DNA of 64,000 bases from an uncultured Chloroflexia bacterium (GTDB lineage: Bacteria > Chloroflexota > Anaerolineae > B4-G1 > SLSP01), in the NCBI GenBank assembly GCA_963751345.1, contig CAVVUS010000018.1:32001-96000 (forward strand). The letters are read 5' to 3'. Both the position numbers and the translations under genes were made by a program. The first letter of the stretch is position 1, and the number at the start of each line of letters is the position of its first letter. Shown piece after piece: positions 7,377 to 18,806 of this stretch. Below the pieces are notes generated by a model. It saw only the letters and a list, made by a program, of their open reading frames with translations, was not told the DNA's origin and ran no database searches.

Positions 7377-7404
7377 TTGTCCGATAGAACTTTTGTGCTA
7401 TCAT
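7377..7404 (+). promoter_or_regulatory. Sigma70 promoter with a putative LexA (SOS) box in its spacer
   Basis: TTGTCC-N16-TATCAT with extended TG; AGAAC-TTTT-GTGCT at 7386-7399 is one mismatch from AGAAC-N4-GTTCT. Confidence 0.65.
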
Positions 7405-7441
7405 GTGGGCTAGGAACGTCGTAGCCAAGTGAGGAGGTCGG

Positions 7442-8518
7442 ATGCCAGCCGATCCGTCCGCGTTGACCATTTGGACCACCCAACCCGACAGCCCGCTAGC
7501 ACGTCATCTGCGGGAGATGGGCTTCACTGTCGGCGCCATCGAGGAGGATGAGGGCGACATCGATCGCTACATCCTTGGCCCACAACTCGCGGTCGAGCGT
7601 CGTACGGCCCGCACCTTCCTGTTGGGCATCCAGGACAAGACGCTCTTCACCTCTGCTATCTATCTCCGCGAGCACTTTGAGATCCCGATTCTCATCGTCG
7701 AGGGTAGTATCGACTACGGGACCACGGGGTTTCATCCCCAGGCCGTGCGTGGCGCGCTGTCGTCCATGATGCTTGAATATGGCGTGAGCGTCCTTTCCAC
7801 TCCGGACGAGGGGGAGACTGCTCAGCTTCTGGCGATGATGGCGCGCCATGCCCAGGCGGGTATTCCCGAGATCTCCCTGGTCCCCAAGCGCAAAGCCGTG
7901 ATCTTGCCCGATCTACAGCGGCGCGTGGTGGAGATGCTGCCGGGCTGCGGACGGGTGACTGCAAGGGATCTGCTGCAGCATTTCGGCAGTGTCGAGCGCA
8001 TCGTCTCCGCGGGGCAGACGGAGCTGCAGCACGTCCGCGGCATCGGTAGGACGCGCGCCGCCGAAATCCACCGCGTCTTGCACGCAGATTATGAGGCGGT
8101 CGATACCGAACAGAACCTGGAGGACGCCATCACGGCTTCGCCGGAACTCCTCTTCGATCATGACGTTGAGTTCTTGGCACGACAACACCTTTTCACGACG
8201 GCGGCAGGTGAGCGCAATATCGTCGATCTTGCGTTCTTCGATGTCGCACGCGCCACCGTCGTTTTGGTTGAACTCAAGAGGGGTGGGCTGAACGCGGATC
8301 ACGAGGCACAGCTTCGACGCTATCTTGAGACGGCGGATGAGTCCCCGCTCTTCCACAGCTATCTGGTTCAGGGTGCCGGGCTTCGCGGGATTCTGGCTAC
8401 CGTGGACCGATGTGATTTTACTGCCAGCATCTCCGGACGTCGAGGCTGTTATCGTGGACGAGGCTGCGGTACAATCGAGGTGATCAAGGCGCTACGCCAC
8501 AAGAGACTAGGAGGATAG
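7442..8518 (+). CDS. ERCC4/XPF-like domain + (HhH)2 + NucS-like PD-(D/E)xK nuclease fusion
   Basis: LAVERRT..LF..PILIVEG (ERCC4); LPGCG..ARDLLQHFGS..VRGIG (HhH2); EQNLED..PELL..RQ..IVDL..VELKRG..QLRRY (NucS-like); SD GAGGAGG. Confidence 0.8.
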   Translation: MPADPSALTIWTTQPDSPLARHLREMGFTVGAIEEDEGDIDRYILGPQLAVERRTARTFLLGIQDKTLFTSAIYLREHFEIPILIVEGSIDYGTTGFHPQAVRGALSSMMLEYGVSVLSTPDEGETAQLLAMMARHAQAGIPEISLVPKRKAVILPDLQRRVVEMLPGCGRVTARDLLQHFGSVERIVSAGQTELQHVRGIGRTRAAEIHRVLHADYEAVDTEQNLEDAITASPELLFDHDVEFLARQHLFTTAAGERNIVDLAFFDVARATVVLVELKRGGLNADHEAQLRRYLETADESPLFHSYLVQGAGLRGILATVDRCDFTASISGRRGCYRGRGCGTIEVIKALRHKRLGG

Positions 8519-8522
8519 AGAA

Positions 8523-9452
8523 ATGGAGAAGCTGAGCCGGGCAGCACAGGCCAGAGCGCGGGCATTTGTCTTCGAGTATGGGCGTCCGTTGGAGCGGGCC
8601 AGGTTTCTCTATGCCTTGGAGGGTGGCGACGCGCAGAAGCTGTGCTCGACGAACTGGCGTCCTTCCGAGAACGAGGACGGAGGGTTCGGCCACGGGTTGG
8701 AGTCCGACCTGAGGCTGCCCGACTCGTCGGTGTTGGCCACGACGGTGGGGTTGCAGATCGCTTCGTGAGGTCGGCGCCGGCGCGGATCATCCCTTGGTCG
8801 AGGGGGCCATGCGCTACTTGATGGCGACCTATGACTCCGACCACGAAGTCTGGCCTATGACCCCCCCCAACGTCGACGACGCGCCGCACGCCCCGTGGTG
8901 GCACTATGATGAGGACGTGGCGACCGGTGGGGTGGATTCCTGGCCAATCCCCGTGCGGAGATCGTGGGCTACCTGCACGACTACGCCGATCTGGTGCCGC
9001 CGCAGATGCGGGATCATCTGACGGACGCAGTCATAGAGCATCTCGGGGACCTTGGGACATCTGTCGAGATGCACGAGGCCCTTTGCTATGTGCGCCTCGC
9101 CGAGAGCGAGGGGCTGCCGGAGGCCGCGCGTTTGGAACTGCTGCGCCTGCTGGTGCCGGTGGTGGATGCGACGGTGGCCAAGGACCCGGGCGCGTGGGGT
9201 GGATATGGGCTTACACCGGTCGAGGTCGCCAGCGGTCCGGACTCGCCCTTTGCGGCCCTGTTGGCCGAGCCGCTGTCGGCCAACCTCGATTACGAGATCG
9301 CGCAGCATGCCGAGAGCGGTATCTGGGAGCCCAAGTGGACGTGGGGTGGCGCGTATCCGGAGGCTTGGGAGCAGGCGAGAGAGGACTGGTCCGGAGTCAT
9401 TACCGTTCGGATGTTGGCGACGCTCAAACGTTTCGGGCGCCTGGAAGGGTAG
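8523..9452 (+). CDS. Prenyltransferase/terpenoid-cyclase-fold (alpha/alpha barrel) protein, frameshifted
   Basis: GRPLERARF..NEDGGFGHGLESDLR, APHAPWW, WSGVIT; split over ORFs 8523-8768, 8794-9021 and 8964-9452. Confidence 0.65.
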
Positions 9453-10604
9453 GTGCGGCCGGTGGAGATCTCGATTGCGACGGCTCGTCGACTGGCGCTC
9501 TATTGCCAGGGGCTCAACGGTGCTTCCGAGGGCCCTGCAGATAGAGCCCATATTGCTCAAATCATCGAGCAACTGGGTTATGTGCAGATTGACACGATCC
9601 ACGTCATTCAGCGGGCGCACCATCACGTGCTCTGGAGCCGCTGTCCGGGCTATCATCCACAGATGCTCCACGAGCTTCTGGTCGAGGATCGCAGCGTCTT
9701 CGAGTGGTGGACCCACGCCGCATCTTACATCCCGATGACCGACTTCCGCTTCTACGTGCCTCGGATGCGGGATATGGCGGACTCAGCACGACAGAAGGCG
9801 TGGCACGACGAACACCGTGAGGTTGTGGACCACGTCATCGCGCGCATCCGCGAGGAGGGGGCACTGGGCGCGGCGGACTTCGAGGCGCCGGAGGATTTTC
9901 AGGGCGGCACGTGGTGGAATTGGAAACCGGCAAAGCGGGCGCTGGAGTTCCTCTTCAACGCCGGTGTGGTGACCGTATCCGAACGCCGGAACTTCCAGCG
10001 GCTCTACGATCTCCGGGAGCGAATCATACCTGAGGATGCGCATCTTCCCGAACCGGATCGCGCTGACCGGGATGAGTTCATCATCCGGCGGTCGGTTGGC
10101 AGTTTGGGCGTACTTCCCAGAAGGGAGATCCGTTGGTGGCGGGCGACTCGCCCTAGCGCGGAAGCTCTCGAACGGGAAATTGATGCCGGAAGGATCACGC
10201 TCGTTTCGCTCGAGGGTGATGGGGACGAGCCCTGGTACGCCTGGACGGCGGCACTCGAAGCCATCGACACCGATAGCCGCGAGCCTGTCGCGCTCCACAT
10301 TCTCTCTCCCTTCGACAACCTGATCATCCGACGCCAGTGGATGGAACGACTCTTTGGTTACGACTATCGACTGGAATGCTATGTGCCCAAAGCCAAGCGG
10401 CAATATGGTTACTTCGCGCTGCCGATTCTCTATGGCGATCGATTCATCGGGCGGATGGACACGAAGGCGGACCGCGCCACCCGCACCTTGATCGTGCGCC
10501 AGCTCACGTTCGAGGCTGATTTCGACCCCGACGAGCGCGTCCTGTCGCTTCTGGTGGAGAAGCTGCGGGCTTTTGGCGCGTTCAACGGCTGTGAGTGCCT
10601 TTGA
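9453..10604 (+). CDS. ycaQ: YcaQ/AlkZ-family (HTH_42) crosslink-repair DNA glycosylase; C-terminus may extend to 10684
   Basis: VQIDTI (QxD), FEWWTHAAS, FQRLYDL, LSPFDNL, YRLECYVPKAKRQYGYF. Confidence 0.9.
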   Translation: MRPVEISIATARRLALYCQGLNGASEGPADRAHIAQIIEQLGYVQIDTIHVIQRAHHHVLWSRCPGYHPQMLHELLVEDRSVFEWWTHAASYIPMTDFRFYVPRMRDMADSARQKAWHDEHREVVDHVIARIREEGALGAADFEAPEDFQGGTWWNWKPAKRALEFLFNAGVVTVSERRNFQRLYDLRERIIPEDAHLPEPDRADRDEFIIRRSVGSLGVLPRREIRWWRATRPSAEALEREIDAGRITLVSLEGDGDEPWYAWTAALEAIDTDSREPVALHILSPFDNLIIRRQWMERLFGYDYRLECYVPKAKRQYGYFALPILYGDRFIGRMDTKADRATRTLIVRQLTFEADFDPDERVLSLLVEKLRAFGAFNGCECL

Positions 10605-10731
10605 GCGTCGAACAGGTCACGCCGGAGCGTTTGAAGCGTCCTCTCTCCCTTGCGCTGGCCTCCCCGGAATATGCCGAGAACTGACATCAATCCCCGGTAA
10701 GCTTGGATCGTGTCATATCAAAGGAGGCGAC

Positions 10732-11509
10732 GTGTCATCAGTAGATCGATTCCTTGAGGGACGCGTGGCCCTGGTTACCGGGTCGACGGGTGGGGGCATG
10801 GGGCGGAGCATCGCCCTGACGCTGGCTGCTCACGGCGCCGACATCGTGCTCAACCACGGCACACATCGTTGCGATAGCGAAGCCGACGCTGCGGCAGAGG
10901 CGATTGTCCAGGCGATCTATGCTATGGGAAGTCGTGCGCGCTTCGTCAAGGCTGACACGCGCAAGGCCGGTGAGGTCGAGGAGATGGTCCGCCAGGCGCA
11001 GGAGACCTTTGGGCGTATCGATATCCTCGTCAACAACGCCGGTGGCGCGTGGCTGCCAGGTGATATTACCGATGCCGACCCGGAGGCGTTCCGTGATGTC
11101 ATCGAGGCCGAGGCATTTGGCGCCTTCCTGTGTACCCGCGCATGCCTGCCGCTCATGCGCCAACAAGCCTGGGGCCGGATTGTCAGTCTGGGTGCTTATG
11201 ATGCCGGGATCTGGGCCGATGGCCCGCTCTCCTACGCCATCGGCAAGGGCTCGCGCGCGCTCATGACGCGTCACCTCGCTCTGCAGGAGCGCAAACACAA
11301 CATCACGGTGAACTTGGTCAATCCCGGGCCGGGTCATACCTTCGCCTTTGGGAGCCTGGATGTGCGCCTTGAGCTATGCGCGGCACGAAGCCGCGTGGCA
11401 AGAGCGACAGAAGGCAACGCCGCAGGATATCGCCGATGCCGTGCTCTTCCTCTGCCGCGAGGAGGCACGTTTCATCACCGGAAGCCACCTCGCCTTCTCC
11501 ATCGACTGA
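10732..11509 (+). CDS. SDR family oxidoreductase (frameshift near 11360-11390)
   Basis: TGSTGGGMG, DILVNNAG, YAIGK; C-terminus PQDIADAVLFL..FITG in another frame; SD AAGGAGG. Confidence 0.85.
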
Positions 11510-11638
11510 GGTTGCCCTCCGATCTTTCCCGAAGTTCCGGTTGCGGTTGCGGTATAATGCACCGGATCGAGGAAAGTTAGGCGGAAGGCCGAACGTTTTC
11601 TATGATGATGGCGTGACACCGCAAGGGGCAAACTACCT

Positions 11639-12853
11639 TTGGATGAGGATACGAAGCAACTGATCGAGGCGTCGCTTCTTGACGAGGAGACGCTGGTCAA
11701 GGCGACGTTCAGCGGACGCCGTCGGGGATACGAATTGCCTTGGCGGCGGGTAATCGTCCGTCCGGTGTTGATTCGAGACGACCGCTACCTGCAGATCTCG
11801 TACTTCGATGAGAAGCATGACATTACCAAGAACTACGTCGGACAGGATGCGCGCGACAAGGTGCATGAGTTGCTGGAGTTGCCCTTCAGCCAGATTCACG
11901 TCATGACCACCGAAGGCGAGATCCAGGTGCAGATCTCGCGGAAGGGCGTGGCCCGTGTCTCTCAACACAGGTCCTCGAAGGCCGCACCTGCTCTGGCCCA
12001 CGATCGTGAAAAGGCCTATCTTCTCCCTGGCACCGAGCCGGACGCCTTCCTGCAGGCCAAAGGCATCCAGACACCTGACGGTCGGATCCGGGCCAGCAAG
12101 CAGCGTAAGTTCCGGCAGATCAACGAGTTCCTGCGGCTCATTGCCGAGACCGAAATGTTGGACAAGCTGGTCCCCGCGGACGAGCCCAGACCCATCCGGA
12201 TCGTGGATTGCGGCTGCGGCAGTGCGGACCTGACCTTCGCCACTTACCATTATCTCAGTCACATCTACAACCATCCCGCCAAGGCTGTGGGCATCGACGT
12301 CAAGGCGGATCTGGTGGCCAAGCAGAATGCGATTGCGGCGGACTTGGGTTGGACAGACTTACGTTTCGAGGTCAGTCGCATTATCGACTACCAGCCGGTT
12401 GAAACCCCTGACATCGTCCTTGCTCTTCACGCGTGTGACACGGCGACGGACGAAGCGCTGGCACAGGCCGTGAAATGGGGCGCCAGGATGATCTTCAGCG
12501 CGCCGTGCTGCCACCACAACCTGCAGGCGCAGATGGCGGAGCAGGAGATGCCGCCGGTTTTCCAACCGGTGCTGCGGCACGGCATCCTCAGAGAGCGTGT
12601 GGGCGACGTTCTCACAGACAGCTTTCGCGCCCAGATCCTGCGTATCTTTGGTTACGCGACCGATGTCGTGCAGTTCATCTCCCCTGAGCACACCGCCAAG
12701 AACCTGATGATCCGGGGCATCAAGACGACGACACCCGGCGATCCTCAGATGATCGCGGAATACCGGGCATTGGTGGATTTCTGGCAGGTTCGTCCCTATC
12801 TGGCGCAGCTTCTCGACAAGCAGCTTTCAGTGTTTGCGGATGCTGTCGCCTGA
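11639..12853 (+). CDS. Class I SAM-dependent methyltransferase (Methyltransf_32-like)
   Basis: KFRQINEFL, IVDCGCGSADLTF, ALHACDTATD, PCCHH, EHTAKNLMI. Confidence 0.88.
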   Translation: MDEDTKQLIEASLLDEETLVKATFSGRRRGYELPWRRVIVRPVLIRDDRYLQISYFDEKHDITKNYVGQDARDKVHELLELPFSQIHVMTTEGEIQVQISRKGVARVSQHRSSKAAPALAHDREKAYLLPGTEPDAFLQAKGIQTPDGRIRASKQRKFRQINEFLRLIAETEMLDKLVPADEPRPIRIVDCGCGSADLTFATYHYLSHIYNHPAKAVGIDVKADLVAKQNAIAADLGWTDLRFEVSRIIDYQPVETPDIVLALHACDTATDEALAQAVKWGARMIFSAPCCHHNLQAQMAEQEMPPVFQPVLRHGILRERVGDVLTDSFRAQILRIFGYATDVVQFISPEHTAKNLMIRGIKTTTPGDPQMIAEYRALVDFWQVRPYLAQLLDKQLSVFADAVA

Positions 12854-13688
12854 GTCGACGCGCCTTCGACGGCTGCCGCGGATGGCCCTGGGATGCGGGG
12901 TCGTCGCGCTTCTCCTGGGATTGGGGGCTGTCGACGCGTTCCTCATCGAGCCTCACTGGCTCCAGGTGAACAGGCTGACCCTAGCCTCGGACAAGATCGC
13001 GCAGCCGGTCCGCATCGTAGTGTTGGCGGACGTGCAGACCGATCGCCCCGGCCCCTACGAAGCGCGCGTCTTCGAGACGGCGATGGCGCAATCGCCGGAT
13101 CTGATTCTCTTTGCCGGGGACTACGTACAGCTCGGGCGACGCAGTGGCAGCTATGAGACCGAGATTGAGGCGTTGAACGAGGTGATCCGCGCCGCAGGTC
13201 TCTCCGCGCCGCTGGGTATCTACGCGATCGCCGGGAACGTCGATCGGCCCGACGTATGGGCCCGAGTCTTTGACGGCCTCCCCGTGGTGACGATCGACGA
13301 CACAACCCGGTACGAAGTCGGACCTTTGGTACTGACAGGACTGGGTATGCAGGATTCGTTCCGACAGGATATTGTGGTGGAGCCCGAGGACGGCTTTCAC
13401 ATCGTGTTGGGCCACAGCCCCAACTTCAGCCTTGGCGCCATCGAGGGCGACCTGTTGATCGCGGGACATACGCACGGCGGTCAGGTACAGCTCCCATTGA
13501 TCGGGCCCCTGCTGACACTTTCCGCCGTGCCCCGGAGTTGGGCCTCCGGTGTGACGATGATCGCGCCCGGCAAGACGCTCGTCGTCTCCCGTGGTATCGG
13601 GATGGAGCGGGGTATCGCGCCCCGCATCCGGTTTCTCTGCCGTCCGGAGTTGGTGGTGATCGATCTGGTGCCGGAAAATGAACAATAG
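12834..13688 (+). CDS. Membrane-anchored metallophosphoesterase (YkuE-like)
   Basis: AGDYV, GNVD, GHSP, AGHTHGGQV, SRGIG, RFLCRPE. Confidence 0.85.
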   Translation: MRMLSPESTRLRRLPRMALGCGVVALLLGLGAVDAFLIEPHWLQVNRLTLASDKIAQPVRIVVLADVQTDRPGPYEARVFETAMAQSPDLILFAGDYVQLGRRSGSYETEIEALNEVIRAAGLSAPLGIYAIAGNVDRPDVWARVFDGLPVVTIDDTTRYEVGPLVLTGLGMQDSFRQDIVVEPEDGFHIVLGHSPNFSLGAIEGDLLIAGHTHGGQVQLPLIGPLLTLSAVPRSWASGVTMIAPGKTLVVSRGIGMERGIAPRIRFLCRPELVVIDLVPENEQ

Positions 13689-13849: not shown

Positions 13850-16800
13850 TTGCGTATCACTATTCAGGGCGCCAACGAGCACAACCTGAAGGACGTCGAC
13901 GTCGAGATCGGCGACGGGCTGACGGTCGTCACCGGAGTCTCGGGCTCCGGCAAGACGTCGCTCGTCTTCGATACCCTCTACCACGAGGCACGTCGCCGGT
14001 TCCTGGAGGTCTTCTCGCTGGGCGAACGCCTCTCTCCGGCGGACGTGCGGGTGATCACCGGTCTGGGACCGGCGGTTGCCGTGGGCCAGAACCTCCTGAA
14101 TCGCAACCCAGGGTCCACGTTGGCGACGGCCTCAGGACTACATCCGTTTCTGCGGCTGCTCTACGCTCACTTCGGGGAGCGCGCCTGCGCGCAGTGTGGG
14201 GCACCCATCTCGGTTCATACGAATGATGAGATTATCGAGCGGCTGGCCTTCCTGGCCGAGACGGCGCCGCTCATGGTTATCGCGCCCATCGTGCGCCAGG
14301 CAGTCGGCAGCCATCGAACGTTGCTGGCGCTCCTGATCGAGGCCTTTGGTGCGAGTGCCGTGATCCTCGACGGCGCTGTGGCGACCCAGGCTCAGGTGGC
14401 GGCGCTCGATGCGACACAACTGCACGACATCGACATTGTGGTTGCCGAGCTACCCACCGCGGCGGGGACAGGCGAGATCCGCGATGCCCTGGAGCGCGTC
14501 TGGGCATTCGGGGCCAGCGCCGTAGCGGTGCGCCAGGGAGACCGGGTGACGACTCTATCCCGTGCGCCTGTCTGCTCACAGTGCGGTGCATGGTTCGGCG
14601 ATCTGTCTCCGGTGCGCTTTCACCAGCCCTGTCCTCACTGTGACGGCGCCGGCTGCGACCGCTGCGACCACACCGGCATGCATCCCGAGGCAGCCGCGGT
14701 CCGGTGGCAGGGCCTACGCCTTCCGGATCTGCTGGCTCTTCCGGTGACAGAGGTGCGCGGGCGTTTCGCCGAGGCCGAGCTTCCGTCGACGTCGGAACGC
14801 CTTGAGGCTGAGATCACGCGGCGTCTTGATGCCTTGGAGCGCGTCGGACTCGGCTACATTGCGCTAGATCGTTCTTCGCCCACGCTCTCCCGCGGGGAGT
14901 CTCAGCGGGTGCGGCTGGCTGTTGCGCTGACCAGCCGCCTCGAGGATATCGTCCACGTACTCGATGAGCCGACGATCGGGCAGCATCCTGCCGACGTCGC
15001 GCGGCTTCTACCCGCTTTCCGCGAACTGGGCGGCCCCGTGATCTACGTCGAGCATGATCGCGTCGCGGCGGCGGCGGCCGATCACGCGCTTGATCTGGGT
15101 CCAGGTGCAGGTCGTGCCGGCGGGACAGTCACGTTCGATGGTACGCCCGCCGGGCTCTGGCAGATGGATACGCCCACCGGTCGCTATTTCAGCCTCCGGG
15201 AGCGGGTGATGATTCCCGATCGCCGCCCTGAGCCGGAGGAGTTCCTGACTCTGCGAGGGGCCAACCTGCGCAACCTGCGGAGCATCGATGTCCCTATCCC
15301 TATGGGCCGGTTGACGGTTGTCACGGGCGTCTCGGGCTCGGGCAAGAGCACTTTCGTCGAGGATGTCCTCGCGGCTTCGCTCTCCGGTAGTGCCCCGGTG
15401 GGGTGCATTACCGTTGACGGGCCTCCGCTCAAAGCAGTGATGGTCGATCAGAGCCCGATTGGGCGGAACCCCCGGTCGAACCCGGCGACCTATACCAAGC
15501 TCTCCGACATCGTGCGCGACGGCTTCGCGGCGGCTACGGACCTCTCGCCGTCTCATTTCTCGTTCAATCGCCCCGAGGGTGCGTGCCCGGCCTGCAAGGG
15601 CATCGGCGCCGTCGAGGTCGCGATGCGCTATCTTCCCTCGACGTGGATCCCGTGCGCTGAATGTGAGGGCCACCGGTTCAGTGACGAAGTCCTGGCTGCG
15701 ACGGTCCCCTTCGGGGATGAAGCTCTATCCATCGCTGACTTCTACGAGCTCACCATTGCCGAGGTCGTGCCGCTACTCCGGTCGTCTCCGTATCTCTCCG
15801 AGCAGCAGAAACGGGCCGCCGGGCACATCCTGCACGCGCTTCGCGATATCGGCCTTGGCTATCTGCAACTGGGACAGCCGTCACCAACCCTGTCTGGCGG
15901 CGAAGCTCAGCGCGTCAAGTTGGCAAAGTACCTTGGACGGCCCAGGCTCCGGGGGCAGATGCTCATCCTGGACGAGCCCTCGACCGGCCTGCACCCCAAG
16001 GACATCTCCGGTCTTCTCAAGGTGTTGGATCGCCTGGTGCGGCGTGGTGCCTCGGTTGTGGTGGTCGAGCACAACACCGATATCATCCGTGCAGCTGATT
16101 GGGTCATCGATCTCGGTCCGGGTGCCGGGCCCAGGGGCGGCGACCTCGTCTATGCAGGTCCGCCCGATGGGCTGCTGCGGACAGCCGGCTCGGCCACCGG
16201 CCAGGCGCTGCGCGATGAGGCCCTGGTCACTCCGCGGGGTTCCCCGACCTCGCCCGGCACAGATGCAGTGGAAGAGCAATCTGCCGGTACGGTGGTTGGG
16301 GCCATTCGTATCCGCGGCGCAAAGGCCAACAATCTCAAAGACGTGAGTGTGGACTTCCCCAAGGGGCAGCTCACGGTCGTCACCGGTGTCTCCGGCTCGG
16401 GCAAGTCGAGCCTGGTGGGTGACGTACTCGAGTCCGAGGCGCGGCGTCGTTTCCTGGAGACCCTGTCGATGTACGAGCGCCAGGGCACGCGTGAGGGCCC
16501 AGAGGCCGACGCCGAGGCGATCACGGGCCTGGGTGTAGCCATCACCGTGGGCGGAGGGGGACGGGGACGCTTCGGGCGACGGAACACCGTGGGAACGGCG
16601 ACGGAACTCTCGCATCACCTGGCCATTCTTCTTTCGTGGCTCGGTGAACGTGACTGTCCGAACTGCGGCACCTCACTCCAGCGGATCTCGCCAAGCCGCC
16701 ACGTGGCAGGCCTGCGGCGCGGCGGCACCTGGCAGTGCCCAACGTGCGGGAGTCTCTATCCCATCGCGGCCCCGCGGCACTTCTCCCCGTCCGTCTACGC

Positions 16801-18806
16801 TGCAGCATGCACGACCTGTCACGGGGTGGGCACGCTGCGTGAGCCGAACCCCGACAAGCTGATTGTGCATCCTGAGTTGCCGCTGTGCAGCGGCGCAATG
16901 TACTCCCCGGGGTTTTTCCCCAAAGGCTATCTCTGCAAGCCGATGAATGGCGGATATGAGGTCGTTCAAGCGTTGGCCAAGGTGTTGGGTTTTGATCCTG
17001 CCACCACGCCCTGGAACGAGATGACGCGCGAGGCACAGCACGCGTTCCTCTTCGGTTATCCGGAGCCGCTGGAGGTCATCCACGAGAGCCGTAACGGCAC
17101 CACGAGCGTACATCGCCAACATCATCCTGGTTTCTACGGGTGGATACGTGACTGGGACGTCGGCGGTACCTATACCGATACCAAGGTGTGCCCGGCGTGT
17201 GGGGGCGTGCGGCTGCGCGCCGAATACGCGTCGGTTAGGGTTGCAGGCGAGACCTTCCATACGCTGAGCGAGATGACGTTGTCCAGGTTGGCCGATGTGC
17301 TGGACAAGGTGGAGACATCGTCTGTCACCGAACGTGACGGAACGCAGGTCGCCAGCACCGTCGCTGCCAGTCTCGATGCAGCGCGGAGACGGGTGCACTT
17401 CCTTTGCCAGGTCGGGTTGGGCTACCTTCACCTCAACCGCGACGCAGCGACGCTCTCCGCGGGTGAGGCGCAACGTGTCAAGCTGGCCGGCTTGCTGGGC
17501 AGCGGGCTGACTTCCTTGACAGTCCTCGTTGACGAGCCGACACGGGGTATGCATCCTTCCGAGGTCGAGGCGATGATCGGTGCCCTGATCAGCCTCCGCG
17601 CTGAGGGCAACACGGTGGTCGCGGTTGAACACGATCCGGACGTGATGCGCTCGGCCGATTACCTGGTGGATATGGGCCCTGGCGCAGGCGCGGCGGGAGG
17701 CATGGTGGTGGCAGCGGGCACCTTCGAGGAGGTGGTGCGATCAGAGACTCTCACTGCCCGTTGGCTCAGCGGCGCGCGTAGACTCGATCTGACGCAGCCT
17801 CGGCGCGAACCCAAGCAGTGGATGGTGATTCGAGGGGCCAGGGCGCACAACCTCAGAGGCGAGGATGTGCGTCTGCCGAAGGGTGTCCTCGTGGGGATCT
17901 GCGGGGTCTCCGGGTCCGGCAAGAGCACGCTCTTGATCGACACACTGGGCCGCGCCCTGGCGCCAAAGAAGCAGACGACATCCGTGGCCTATGAGCCCGT
18001 GGATCCAGGCGAGCACGATGCAATCGAGGGCTCCCCCCGGCGTGTCCTCCTGGTGGATCAGGTCAAGGCCGGGGTTACGAGTCCTGCTGACTTCCTGGGA
18101 TTGACAAAGCCCGTTCACGCCATCTACGCTGAAAGTGAGGACGCCCATATCTTGGGGCTGGATGCGAAGGCGTTGGGCCAGCGCTGCTCCGCCTGCGGTG
18201 GGCGCGGGACGGAGACCCTCGACATGGGATTTCTGCCTAACGTGTACGTGACGTGTGAGACTTGCCAGGGGACGGGCTATCGGCCCGAGGCGTGGGACGT
18301 GAGGTTGCACGGCGTGGCGCTGCCCGAGATCTTCGGCAGGACGATCGATGAGGTTGTTGAGTTGCTCCGGGACGATATCGACGCCGGTTCGAGCCTTGCT
18401 CGCAAGCTGGAGGCTGTCCGCGACGTGGGATTGGGATACCTGGTGCTCCGTCAGCCCGGCTATTCGCTCTCCGGAGGTGAGGCACAGCGACTGAAGATCG
18501 CGGATGAGCTCTGCAGGCAGAGTCGTTCTGAGACGCTCTACATTCTTGACGAACCCACGGTGGGCCAGCATCTGGAGGACGTCGCGCGCCTTGGCGGCGT
18601 GCTGCGCCGGCTGGTTGCCGAGGGCAACTCCGTCTTCGTCGTGGAGCATCACACGCATCCTCCTGGCGACGTGCGACTGGCTGGTGGAGCTGGGGCCCGG
18701 CGGTGGTCCCGATGGCGGTCGCGTCATCGCCCAGGGCACCCCTGAGGCCGTAGCGGCGGGTGACACGCCGACGGCGCGATACCTGCGGCGGGTGCTGGAG
18801 CGATGA
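13850..18806 (+). CDS. uvrA: Tandem-duplicated UvrA-like protein with four ABC ATPase modules (frameshift near 18655)
   Basis: Four GVSGSGK[ST] Walker A motifs, four LSxGExQR..DEP motifs, many CxxC Zn fingers; true C-terminus in ORF 18504-18806. Confidence 0.88.

Follow-up and report, generated by a model that had tools for sequence, protein, structure and literature searches.

Does the Chloroflexota lineage hold a damage-inducible operon that couples a YcaQ-type DNA glycosylase to a nuclease built from XPF/ERCC4 and NucS parts? The question is raised by three co-directional genes in a 64,000-nt stretch of DNA from an uncultured Chloroflexia bacterium (GenBank assembly GCA_963751345.1, contig CAVVUS010000018.1, positions 32,001 to 96,000 of the forward strand). 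This whole stretch is the window, in whose numbering coordinates are given unless a locus handle precedes them. A first-pass annotation made from the sequence alone had read the genes as an SOS-controlled operon for interstrand-crosslink repair, encoding an XPF/ERCC4-NucS fusion (gene 1), a barrel protein (gene 2), and YcaQ (gene 3). We find a high-scoring LexA-type operator inside the promoter of gene 1, a YcaQ-type glycosylase gene, and a fusion gene that recurs beside genes for the repair of bulky lesions. We put the probability that the predicted operon is a LexA-repressed (SOS) unit acting against bulky alkylation or interstrand-crosslink damage at roughly 0.55.

A LexA-type operator occupies the gene 1 promoter

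A sigma70-like promoter with 16 nt between its −35 and −10 hexamers lies in the 218-nt spacer that separates the end of an ABC-2 exporter gene (7223) from the ATG of gene 1 (7442). The promoter alone is weak evidence: two promoter-like sites occur between 7000 and 11,000, compared with 0.8 ± 0.8 in shuffled sequences. Inside the promoter spacer stands a box with the core AGAAC (7386–7390)-TTTT-GTGCT (7395–7399), and the arrangement described in the first-pass annotation, a sigma70 promoter with AGAAC-N4-GTGCT between its hexamers, was confirmed at 7377–7404.

The LexA protein of Dehalococcoides binds GAAC-N4-GTTC. This motif is also the LexA box of Gram-positive bacteria (PMC3323433). A symmetrized matrix of 20 nt was built from nine AGAAC-N4-GTTCT sites together with the lexA and recA sites of the genome, with the candidate box left out. 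The sequence AGAAC-N4-GTTCT occurs nine times in the genome, compared with about two occurrences expected from composition. With this matrix, the candidate box (score 26.16) ranks ninth among all positions of the 5.4-Mb genome, and the operators of recA (24.51, rank 19) and lexA (20.75, rank 28) both score below it. The genome contains 53 sites scoring at least 12, 38 scoring at least 16, and 28 scoring at least 20; the corresponding numbers in three genomes of equal size simulated with a first-order Markov model are 14 to 17, 1 to 2, and 0.

Both lexA, at C10:27013–27600, and recA are present in single copy, with the promoters TTGACA-TAGAACAAATGTGCGAC-TATAAT and TTGTAC-TGGTAGAACGTTTGTAC-TATAAT, respectively. 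Of 23 relatives, 20 have a box scoring at least 12 no more than 250 nt upstream of lexA, and within the genus it mostly reads CATAGAACAAATGTGCGACT. The GTGC half is therefore a natural form of the lexA operator in this genus, and the seeming mismatch in the candidate box is not a defect. Measured against the genome's own LexA motif, the candidate is a match, with the same GAAC-N4-GTGC that is seen at lexA.

The position of the box is also shared. Seven of the 12 promoters compared, the candidate included, have the box within the −35/−10 spacer, and the arrangement in which the 3′ flank of a spacer box forms the −10 element is common to the candidate, recA, lexA, lhr, and the XPD-like, radical-SAM, and GyrB-like genes. 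Sites scoring at least 16 adjoin genes for an ImuB-like polymerase (IMS and DUF6504 domains; box score 33.4), recA, lexA, uvrA, lhr, and an XPD-like helicase; further such sites adjoin genes for a GyrB-like protein, two FtsK-like fragments, a radical-SAM/HhH protein, and several open reading frames (ORFs) without a family. In relatives of the same genus, boxes precede the cluster in genomes G002 (28.3), G013 (29.3), and G020 (18.9). Because of the quality of the operator, its position within the promoter, and its conservation in five further loci, LexA (SOS) control of the gene 1–3 promoter is a strongly supported prediction.

A YcaQ-type glycosylase and a three-domain fusion

The identification of gene 3 as YcaQ was borne out. 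Its product matches PF06224 (HTH_42/AlkZ-like) over positions 1–329 of 329 (228 bits, 3.1e-67) and the solved AlkX of T. fusca (9ZD6) at 2.2e-51, and its Q45-I-D47 aligns with the QID of 9ZD6, which contains the catalytic Q56 and D58. The QxD motif denotes the YcaQ-like (YQL) branch of the family and (Q/H)xQ the AlkZ-like (AZL) branch (PMC13303869, and PMC9040887 in its available part); E. coli YcaQ depends on both residues of the QxD motif, and its overexpression is toxic by way of abasic sites (PMC7367128). At the level of sequence, gene 3 is securely of the YcaQ type.

The product of gene 1 comprises an ERCC4 domain (residues ~8–140), an (HhH)2 domain (~151–219), and a NucS-C-like PD-(D/E)XK domain (~222–342), so that calling it an XPF/ERCC4-NucS fusion is fair at the level of domains. 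Pfam detects ERCC4 (PF02732, 1.3e-13) and HHH_2 (2.3e-8). Among NCBIfam models, the C-terminal nuclease part of Hef aligns to residues 16–218 and NucS aligns weakly to residues 214–318, the latter over profile positions 121–211 only and with 28.2 bits where the cut-off is 216; in the homolog from locus L084, NucS_C reaches its cut-off (24.2 versus 24). A profile of the gene 1 family matches A. pernix XPF (5e-28), the Hef nuclease domain (2e-20), and, more weakly, FANCM, FAAP24, and ERCC1. In an AlphaFold model with a predicted local distance difference test score (pLDDT) of 83.7, the best structural match of residues 8–140 is the Hef nuclease domain (Z 18.6, root-mean-square deviation [rmsd] 1.7, 129 residues), that of residues 151–219 is the Hef HhH domain (Z 12.8, rmsd 0.9), and that of residues 222–342 is the catalytic half (126–233) of P. 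abyssi NucS (2vld_B; Z 11.9, rmsd 2.5, 105 residues).

The two putative active sites have fared differently. The XPF signature is GDXnERKX3D, as given in the available part of PMC6320978. In gene 1 this signature is degenerate: ERR replaces ERK in all 120 relatives, and at position +4 108 of them have S, T, or G and none has D. More distant full-length members of the fusion family vary at the ERK position (DRR, HRK, TRL, ERL, and one DRK..D), and short XPF-type proteins retain ERKx3D. These substitutions count against crosslink incision by the ERCC4 domain. Residues D262, E277, and K279 of the C-terminal domain, by comparison, are kept in 120 of 120 relatives. With the XPF catalytic signature lost, the property that XPF nucleases incise crosslinks, which the first-pass annotation had carried over to gene 1, is unsupported and cannot simply be transferred, and gene 1 is not just an XPF. 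By analogy with FANCM or ERCC1, we infer that the ERCC4-(HhH)2 part reads or binds DNA and dimerizes; cutting is probably performed by the NucS-like domain and not by ERCC4. With the XPF site degenerate and the neighboring NucS-like site intact, there is a clear prediction of which domain cuts.

The gene 1 family is spread over many phyla, with 566 clusters at 90% identity in a length-limited search and about eight full-length clusters at 50%. Its members are named in databases only as "ERCC4-type nuclease," "DUF1016 family protein," or "hypothetical."

Table 1. Coordinates of the promoter elements, genes 1 to 3, and conserved downstream genes in the window
Feature	Position	Strand	Basis or remark
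−35 hexamer TTGTCC	7377..7382	+	consensus scan
LexA-type operator GATAGAAC-TTTT-GTGCTATC	7383..7402	+	matrix score 26.16; fills promoter spacer, overlaps −10
−10 hexamer TATCAT, extended (TG at 7396–7397)	7399..7404	+	consensus scan
Gene 1 ribosome-binding site GAGGAGG	7431..7437	+	read from sequence
Gene 1	7442..8518	+	358 residues; residues ~327–341 out of register in assembly
Gene 2	8523..9452	+	(alpha/alpha)6 toroid, unnamed family, 308–312 residues when intact; frame-broken here
Gene 3	9453..10604	+	YcaQ/AlkX-like AlkZ-family glycosylase, 383 residues as assembled; intact stop 10682–10684
Methyltransf_32-type protein	11639..12853	+	downstream of gene 1 in all six relatives' loci long enough
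Metallophosphoesterase	12834..13688	+	conserved neighbor
Tandemly duplicated UvrA-like ABC ATPase	13850..18745	+	open, 1631 residues; same cluster position in six of six relatives' loci long enough

Recurrent pairing with repair genes and a proposed mechanism

Homologs of gene 1 were found in 37 loci outside the genus, belonging to many phyla, and the neighbors were scanned in 29 non-genus loci (104 ORFs). In L089, a YcaQ-like gene lies 39 nt from gene 1, and the box AATAGAACAGGTGTGCTAAG (score 18.1) stands 81 nt before the start. In L084, gene 1 is followed by an unrelated gene of 425 codons and then by a YcaQ-like gene. Genes of the gene 1 and gene 3 types are thus neighbors in three lineages, namely the genus, L089, and L084. 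An AlkD-type gene is found beside gene 1 in L088, MrfB-like and MrfA-like genes in L090, and two MrfA-like helicases in L103; beside it in L078 and L083 are an RNase_H_2 protein and a DinB_2 protein, respectively. Because pairing with three kinds of bulky-lesion repair gene, although confined to a minority of loci, recurs in different phyla, gene 1 may well have a role in alkylation or crosslink repair. Two other genes of the same genome, lhr and a second AlkZ-like gene, are preceded by LexA-type boxes, which likewise argues for a repair role.

We propose the following mechanism. Without damage, LexA bound to its operator would very probably block RNA polymerase, as the position and motif of the site suggest. 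On damage, RecA-stimulated self-cleavage of LexA would, with only slightly less assurance, free the promoter. Genes 1 to 3 would then be co-transcribed, since they are separated by gaps of 4 and 0 nt and no terminator-like sites are predicted between 7000 and 11,000. Judged from its family, the gene 3 glycosylase may remove N7-alkylguanines and unhook crosslinks, leaving abasic sites. On odds a little better than even, gene 1 would dimerize, read branched or distorted DNA through its ERCC4-(HhH)2 part, and cut with its NucS-C-like domain. It could process the unhooked intermediate or a stalled fork, or it could give an incision route parallel to the glycosylase. Gene 2 may be an accessory toroid, possibly one that binds a small molecule, and would be dispensable for the pairing of genes 1 and 3; that it acts in the same pathway is doubtful.

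Frame breaks in the assembled genes

The tight spacing of the cluster was verified, with the gene 2 ATG at 8523, the gene 2 stop at 9450–9452, and the gene 3 GTG at 9453. The claim of three genes therefore holds for the spacing; it fails for gene 2 as a single open frame, which contains four internal stops. Similarly, an end of the cluster at 10,684 is correct for an intact gene 3, and in the assembly gene 3 stops at 10,604.

These breaks are grounds for suspecting that this copy of the operon is decaying and nonfunctional. Frame 0 of gene 2 runs from 8523 to 9452; the ORFs of this stretch have 81, 75, and 162 codons, and the conserved reading shifts to frame +1 between ~8760 and ~8924. Relative to the closest intact ortholog, that of G002, in which gene 2 encodes 312 residues in one frame, gene 2 has gained 2 nt near 8634, 1 nt near 8669, and 1 nt near 8760 and lost 1 nt near 8924. 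Gene 1 has gained 1 nt near 8421 and 2 nt near 8462, so that about 14 residues are replaced by an unrelated stretch, and a gain of 2 nt near 10601 creates the stop that costs gene 3 its last ~27 codons. If all seven of these small changes arose by mutation, gene 2 would be a pseudogene and its two partners would be damaged genes, a conclusion favored by the location of the indels outside homopolymer runs and by their clustering in 8421–8924 and near 10601, while the nearby 4.9-kb UvrA-like frame stays open.

The sequences around the breaks nevertheless look maintained. At the deviant stretch of gene 1, the +1 frame gives the family consensus, and residues 331–339, where confidence in the gene 1 model is lowest, coincide with the shifted stretch. 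The shifted parts are 81 to 86% identical to G002, compared with 75 to 82% for the unshifted parts, and thus give no hint that selection has relaxed. Relatives lack the indels, and intact orthologs occur, for example, in L064 and L066. Four other public runs yielded contigs, 90 to 99% alike, that have no indels at the covered places, which comprise all four in gene 2 (8634, 8665, 8760, and 8921) and both in gene 3 (10596/7 and 10606–9). Among public sequencing runs, five contain the stretch, all with small shares (0.06–0.17), and none of the five is an RNA run. Genes elsewhere are broken in the same way: lhr and the second AlkZ-like gene of this genome are split across frames, and the UvrA-like gene is split in two of six relatives' assemblies (L063 and L100) and whole in the others (L064–L066 and L070), which points to consensus errors. 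Errors in the consensus are thus the likelier source of the breaks, and real decay is the lesser but still considerable possibility, since the indel-free contigs come from other strains and decay could be recent. That the operon copy is nonfunctional we consider unlikely, though it is the strongest of the alternatives to a working unit.

Programmed frameshifting of gene 2 was rejected as an explanation, since two successive shifts, +1 followed by −1, would be required and contigs nearly identical in sequence lack the indels.

One pathway or a positional association

A slightly less probable alternative accepts SOS control and denies a common pathway. Here gene 1 would be a general nuclease for branched DNA or forks, with a LexA-controlled promoter of its own, that was either inserted, or retained by only some strains, ahead of a gene 2–3 pair of greater age, in a variable island of the genotoxin-resistance type; co-transcription would then be positional. 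The distribution of the genes gives this alternative its weight. In a search of 40 relatives, full-length gene 1 was present in six of 21 genomes of the same genus, with a partial copy in a seventh, and was not found in the 19 relatives outside the genus. The order gene 1-2-3 occurs in G002, G020, and G013, and G015 has gene 1-2-2′-3 with a tandem copy of gene 2; G019 has gene 1-3, G021 has gene 1 and gene 2 separated by 3 kb, and G004 has gene 1 alone. The expectation that the trio co-occurs in other genomes is therefore upheld for four other genomes, all within one genus, to which the full trio is restricted. Gene 3 orthologs are more widespread (14 of 21 genomes), 11 of the 14 are adjacent to gene 2, and gene 1 lies upstream in only four of these 11.

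The boxes follow a similar pattern. No box scoring at least 12 was found upstream of gene 2–gene 3 pairs that lack gene 1 in G012, G016, G018, and G011, where at least 4 kb was examined, nor was one found before the G015 trio or before gene 1 of G004 and G021; the contigs of G007 and G009 end too soon for the upstream box to be judged. The box seems to accompany gene 1, whose joint transcription with the other two genes may then be incidental. Flanking genes vary as well: G012 and G010 have Glyoxalase/VOC, HAD, and APH-like genes there, and the window has an ABC-2 exporter gene. On this view the YcaQ-like and UvrA-like genes would be further members of the island. Outside the genus, a YcaQ-like neighbor was detected in two of the 37 gene 1 loci and in none of the other 35 with the query used, many of these loci being short, and most of the 104 neighboring ORFs scanned are unrelated to repair. 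In E. coli, ycaQ is constitutive and not damage-induced, according to the available part of PMC7367128. All of these observations weigh against a single damage-induced pathway.

Three findings weigh for it. First, gene 1 stands beside a YcaQ-like gene in L089, without gene 2, and in L084, with a different middle gene. Second, a strong box (28.5) lies directly before gene 2–gene 3 in G010, which lacks gene 1, so that SOS control of the glycosylase is not merely a side effect of gene 1. Third, gene 1 recurs beside AlkD-like and MrfAB-like genes. We therefore favor a joint role of genes 1 and 3 in the SOS-controlled repair of bulky or crosslink lesions.

Several details of these loci may be recorded. 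The tandem gene 2 copies of G015 (L024/L064) share 59% and 61% identity with the protein of G002. L084:41–3919, labeled Planctomycetaceae, shows another arrangement of three genes, in which the middle one differs, and its gene 1 carries an extra N-terminus of ~90 residues with a weak match to the DprA winged helix. The 425-residue product of the middle gene was considered as a relative of gene 2 and rejected (hhalign probability 1%, no Pfam match). In L103, which belongs to another phylum, a Cheo-like box GGTTGAACGTATGTTCGATA (L103:554–573) lies 35 nt before the MrfA-like helicase gene that precedes the gene 1 homolog; it scores 19.3 by the matrix of the present genome, which may not represent the LexA motif of that phylum.

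Repair or defense

A third possibility is that gene 1 encodes a defense or restriction-type nuclease and not a repair enzyme. Its C-terminal domain has a subthreshold Pfam match to YhcG_C/DUF1016 (25.3 bits, cut-off 32.5), a family that co-occurs with restriction-modification domains in the part of PMC3424549 available; gene 1 also matches the PADLOC candidate PDC-S02 weakly (1e-6), and one locus (L068) has defense-type neighbors, GmrSD_N and an ORC-CDC6-like gene. Opposed to this are the operator of the recA/lexA class before gene 1, the identity of the best structural match of the C-terminal domain (NucS), and the lack of a methyltransferase partner specific to gene 1. In the 29 non-genus loci scanned, moreover, repair neighbors occur in six and defense neighbors in one. 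A defense function is thus quite improbable. Least probable of all is that the box is a chance match or the site of a regulator other than LexA, for its one deviation from GAAC-N4-GTTC is the form found at lexA itself across the genus, its score exceeds anything in the simulated genomes, and the genes around such boxes form a typical SOS set.

The toroid protein encoded by gene 2

Gene 2 had been described as a barrel protein, correctly, as it is an alpha/alpha barrel. The model of an intact ortholog (pLDDT 93.9) is an (alpha/alpha)6 toroid whose structural matches include 8zg0 (Z 14.8), 6sbb (Z 13.4), and C3d/C4d-type domains (Z 11–12), values that are common among helical repeats. Foldseek matches are modest (E 3e-4 to 1e-2, TM 0.4–0.57), and among named Atlas clusters the nearest, SQHop_cyclase, reach only 0.86. 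The likeness to class II terpene cyclases, prenyltransferases, and thioester domains is thus at the level of a common fold only. The family numbers 2393 clusters, every one of them "hypothetical," and has no match in Pfam, NCBIfam, or PADLOC.

Homologs of gene 2 occur in 26 of 300 other Chloroflexota genomes and lie beside gene 1 or gene 3 in none of 28 loci, which likewise counts against a conserved three-gene unit; a fixed partnership of gene 2 with AlkZ-like genes was rejected outside the genus on the same count. The neighbors of these homologs vary (WYL regulators three times, PhyH three times, HAD twice). WYL-domain (PafBC-like) regulators control damage responses in Actinobacteria. Distant gene 2 homologs, 28 to 30% identical, adjoin such regulators in three of the 14 loci scanned (L126, L128, and L129).

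Relation to known systems

The system proposed here is of a known kind, the SOS-regulated repair of bulky or crosslink lesions, and its new element is an uncharacterized nuclease family. Gene 3 shares the whole of PF06224 and the QxD motif with YcaQ/AlkX of E. coli, A. baumannii, and T. fusca, and no obvious biosynthetic cluster surrounds it, which also holds for YQL genes (PMC9040887). It differs from E. coli ycaQ, which belongs to the constitutive msbA-lpxK operon (PMC7367128, in part), in standing behind a LexA-type operator and being coupled to a nuclease gene, and from the YQL genes of Streptomyces, which have a different fixed neighborhood (PMC9040887, same portion). If the proposal is true, a YcaQ-type glycosylase would be under direct SOS control, in contrast to the constitutive E. 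coli gene.

Residues ~8–219 of gene 1 have the fold and domain order of archaeal XPF/Hef, but the signature is degenerate, a third domain has been added, and the host is bacterial. The 2012 census of PD-(D/E)XK nucleases, in the part available, lists ERCC4 as archaeal and eukaryotic only (PMC3424549); the present locus gives a functional lead for a highly conserved bacterial ERCC4-domain family that this census missed in bacteria. Compared with NucS/EndoMS, the C-terminal domain corresponds to the catalytic half and keeps the D...ExK triad, while the N-terminal DNA-binding domain of NucS is missing, its position being taken by ERCC4-(HhH)2. FANCM-FAAP24 and ERCC1 also use a degenerate ERCC4-(HhH)2 for DNA recognition or dimerization (profile 5e-11, model Z 15.0) but, unlike gene 1, are eukaryotic and heterodimeric and have no second nuclease domain in the chain. 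The SOS-regulated nuclease MmcB of Caulobacter protects against mitomycin C, as described in the accessible part of PMC13705206, and its likeness to gene 1 is conceptual. Bacillus MrfAB has counterparts adjoining gene 1 homologs (L090 and L103). Gene 1 has no sequence relation to MmcB or MrfB, and the unit described here, unlike MmcB and MrfAB, includes a glycosylase.

The composition had been put forward as undescribed, and literature searches agree: no description of an ERCC4 and AlkZ combination was found, supplementary files lying outside the search; no such fusion is described in the available portions of the bacterial ERCC4/XPF literature; and neither ERCC4, XPF, nor a LexA-controlled YcaQ appears in a 2026 review on crosslink repair in bacteria. 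UvrABC-independent repair of interstrand crosslinks in bacteria is represented by only a few recent cases, YcaQ/AlkX, AlkZ, MrfAB, and MmcB. More speculatively, and with low probability, the fusion may found a further UvrABC-independent pathway of crosslink and bulky-adduct incision, in which a junction-reading XPF/FANCM-like module and a NucS-type cutter in one chain would act with lesion-specific partners (YcaQ-like or AlkD-like glycosylases, MrfAB-like pairs) and, in this lineage, under LexA control. If so, a single operon would hold a bacterial analog of the eukaryotic choice between unhooking by a glycosylase (NEIL3) and by a nuclease (XPF-ERCC1).

Other SOS-type genes and downstream neighbors

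For an uncultured lineage of the Anaerolineae type, the data set defines the LexA operator and some of the SOS regulon. One box lies beside a DEAD helicase that turned out to be the start of lhr (C18:22700–28000, locus L142), located 4 to 9 kb before the first base of the window; the box reads GATGGAACATATGTGCTATT (score 24.75). This lhr encodes DEAD, DEAD_assoc, WH_Lhr, and AlkZ-like C-terminal domains and is split in the assembly into overlapping frames of 553 and 1438 codons. Lhr aids resistance to mitomycin C and cisplatin in mycobacteria, according to the available part of PMC9841417. The second AlkZ-like gene (C18:248746–249801, locus L143) has the box AATAGAACAAAAGATCTATT (24.72) ~57 nt upstream and is split into two frames of 178 and 181 codons; LQDS, the sequence in its N-terminal motif region, agrees with no published form (QxD, QxQ, Hx(S/T)(D/E)).

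Downstream of gene 3, the methyltransferase, phosphoesterase, and UvrA-like genes listed in Table 1 form a triplet with no LexA-type box before it. The G013 contig ends after gene 3 and was left out of the downstream comparison. In the UvrA-like protein, the UvrA_inter and UvrA_DNA-bind domains lie in different halves. Between gene 3 and the methyltransferase gene is a short-chain dehydrogenase gene (10738–11580), whose Pfam match covers profile positions 7–183 of 236 only and whose 3′ part may be out of frame.

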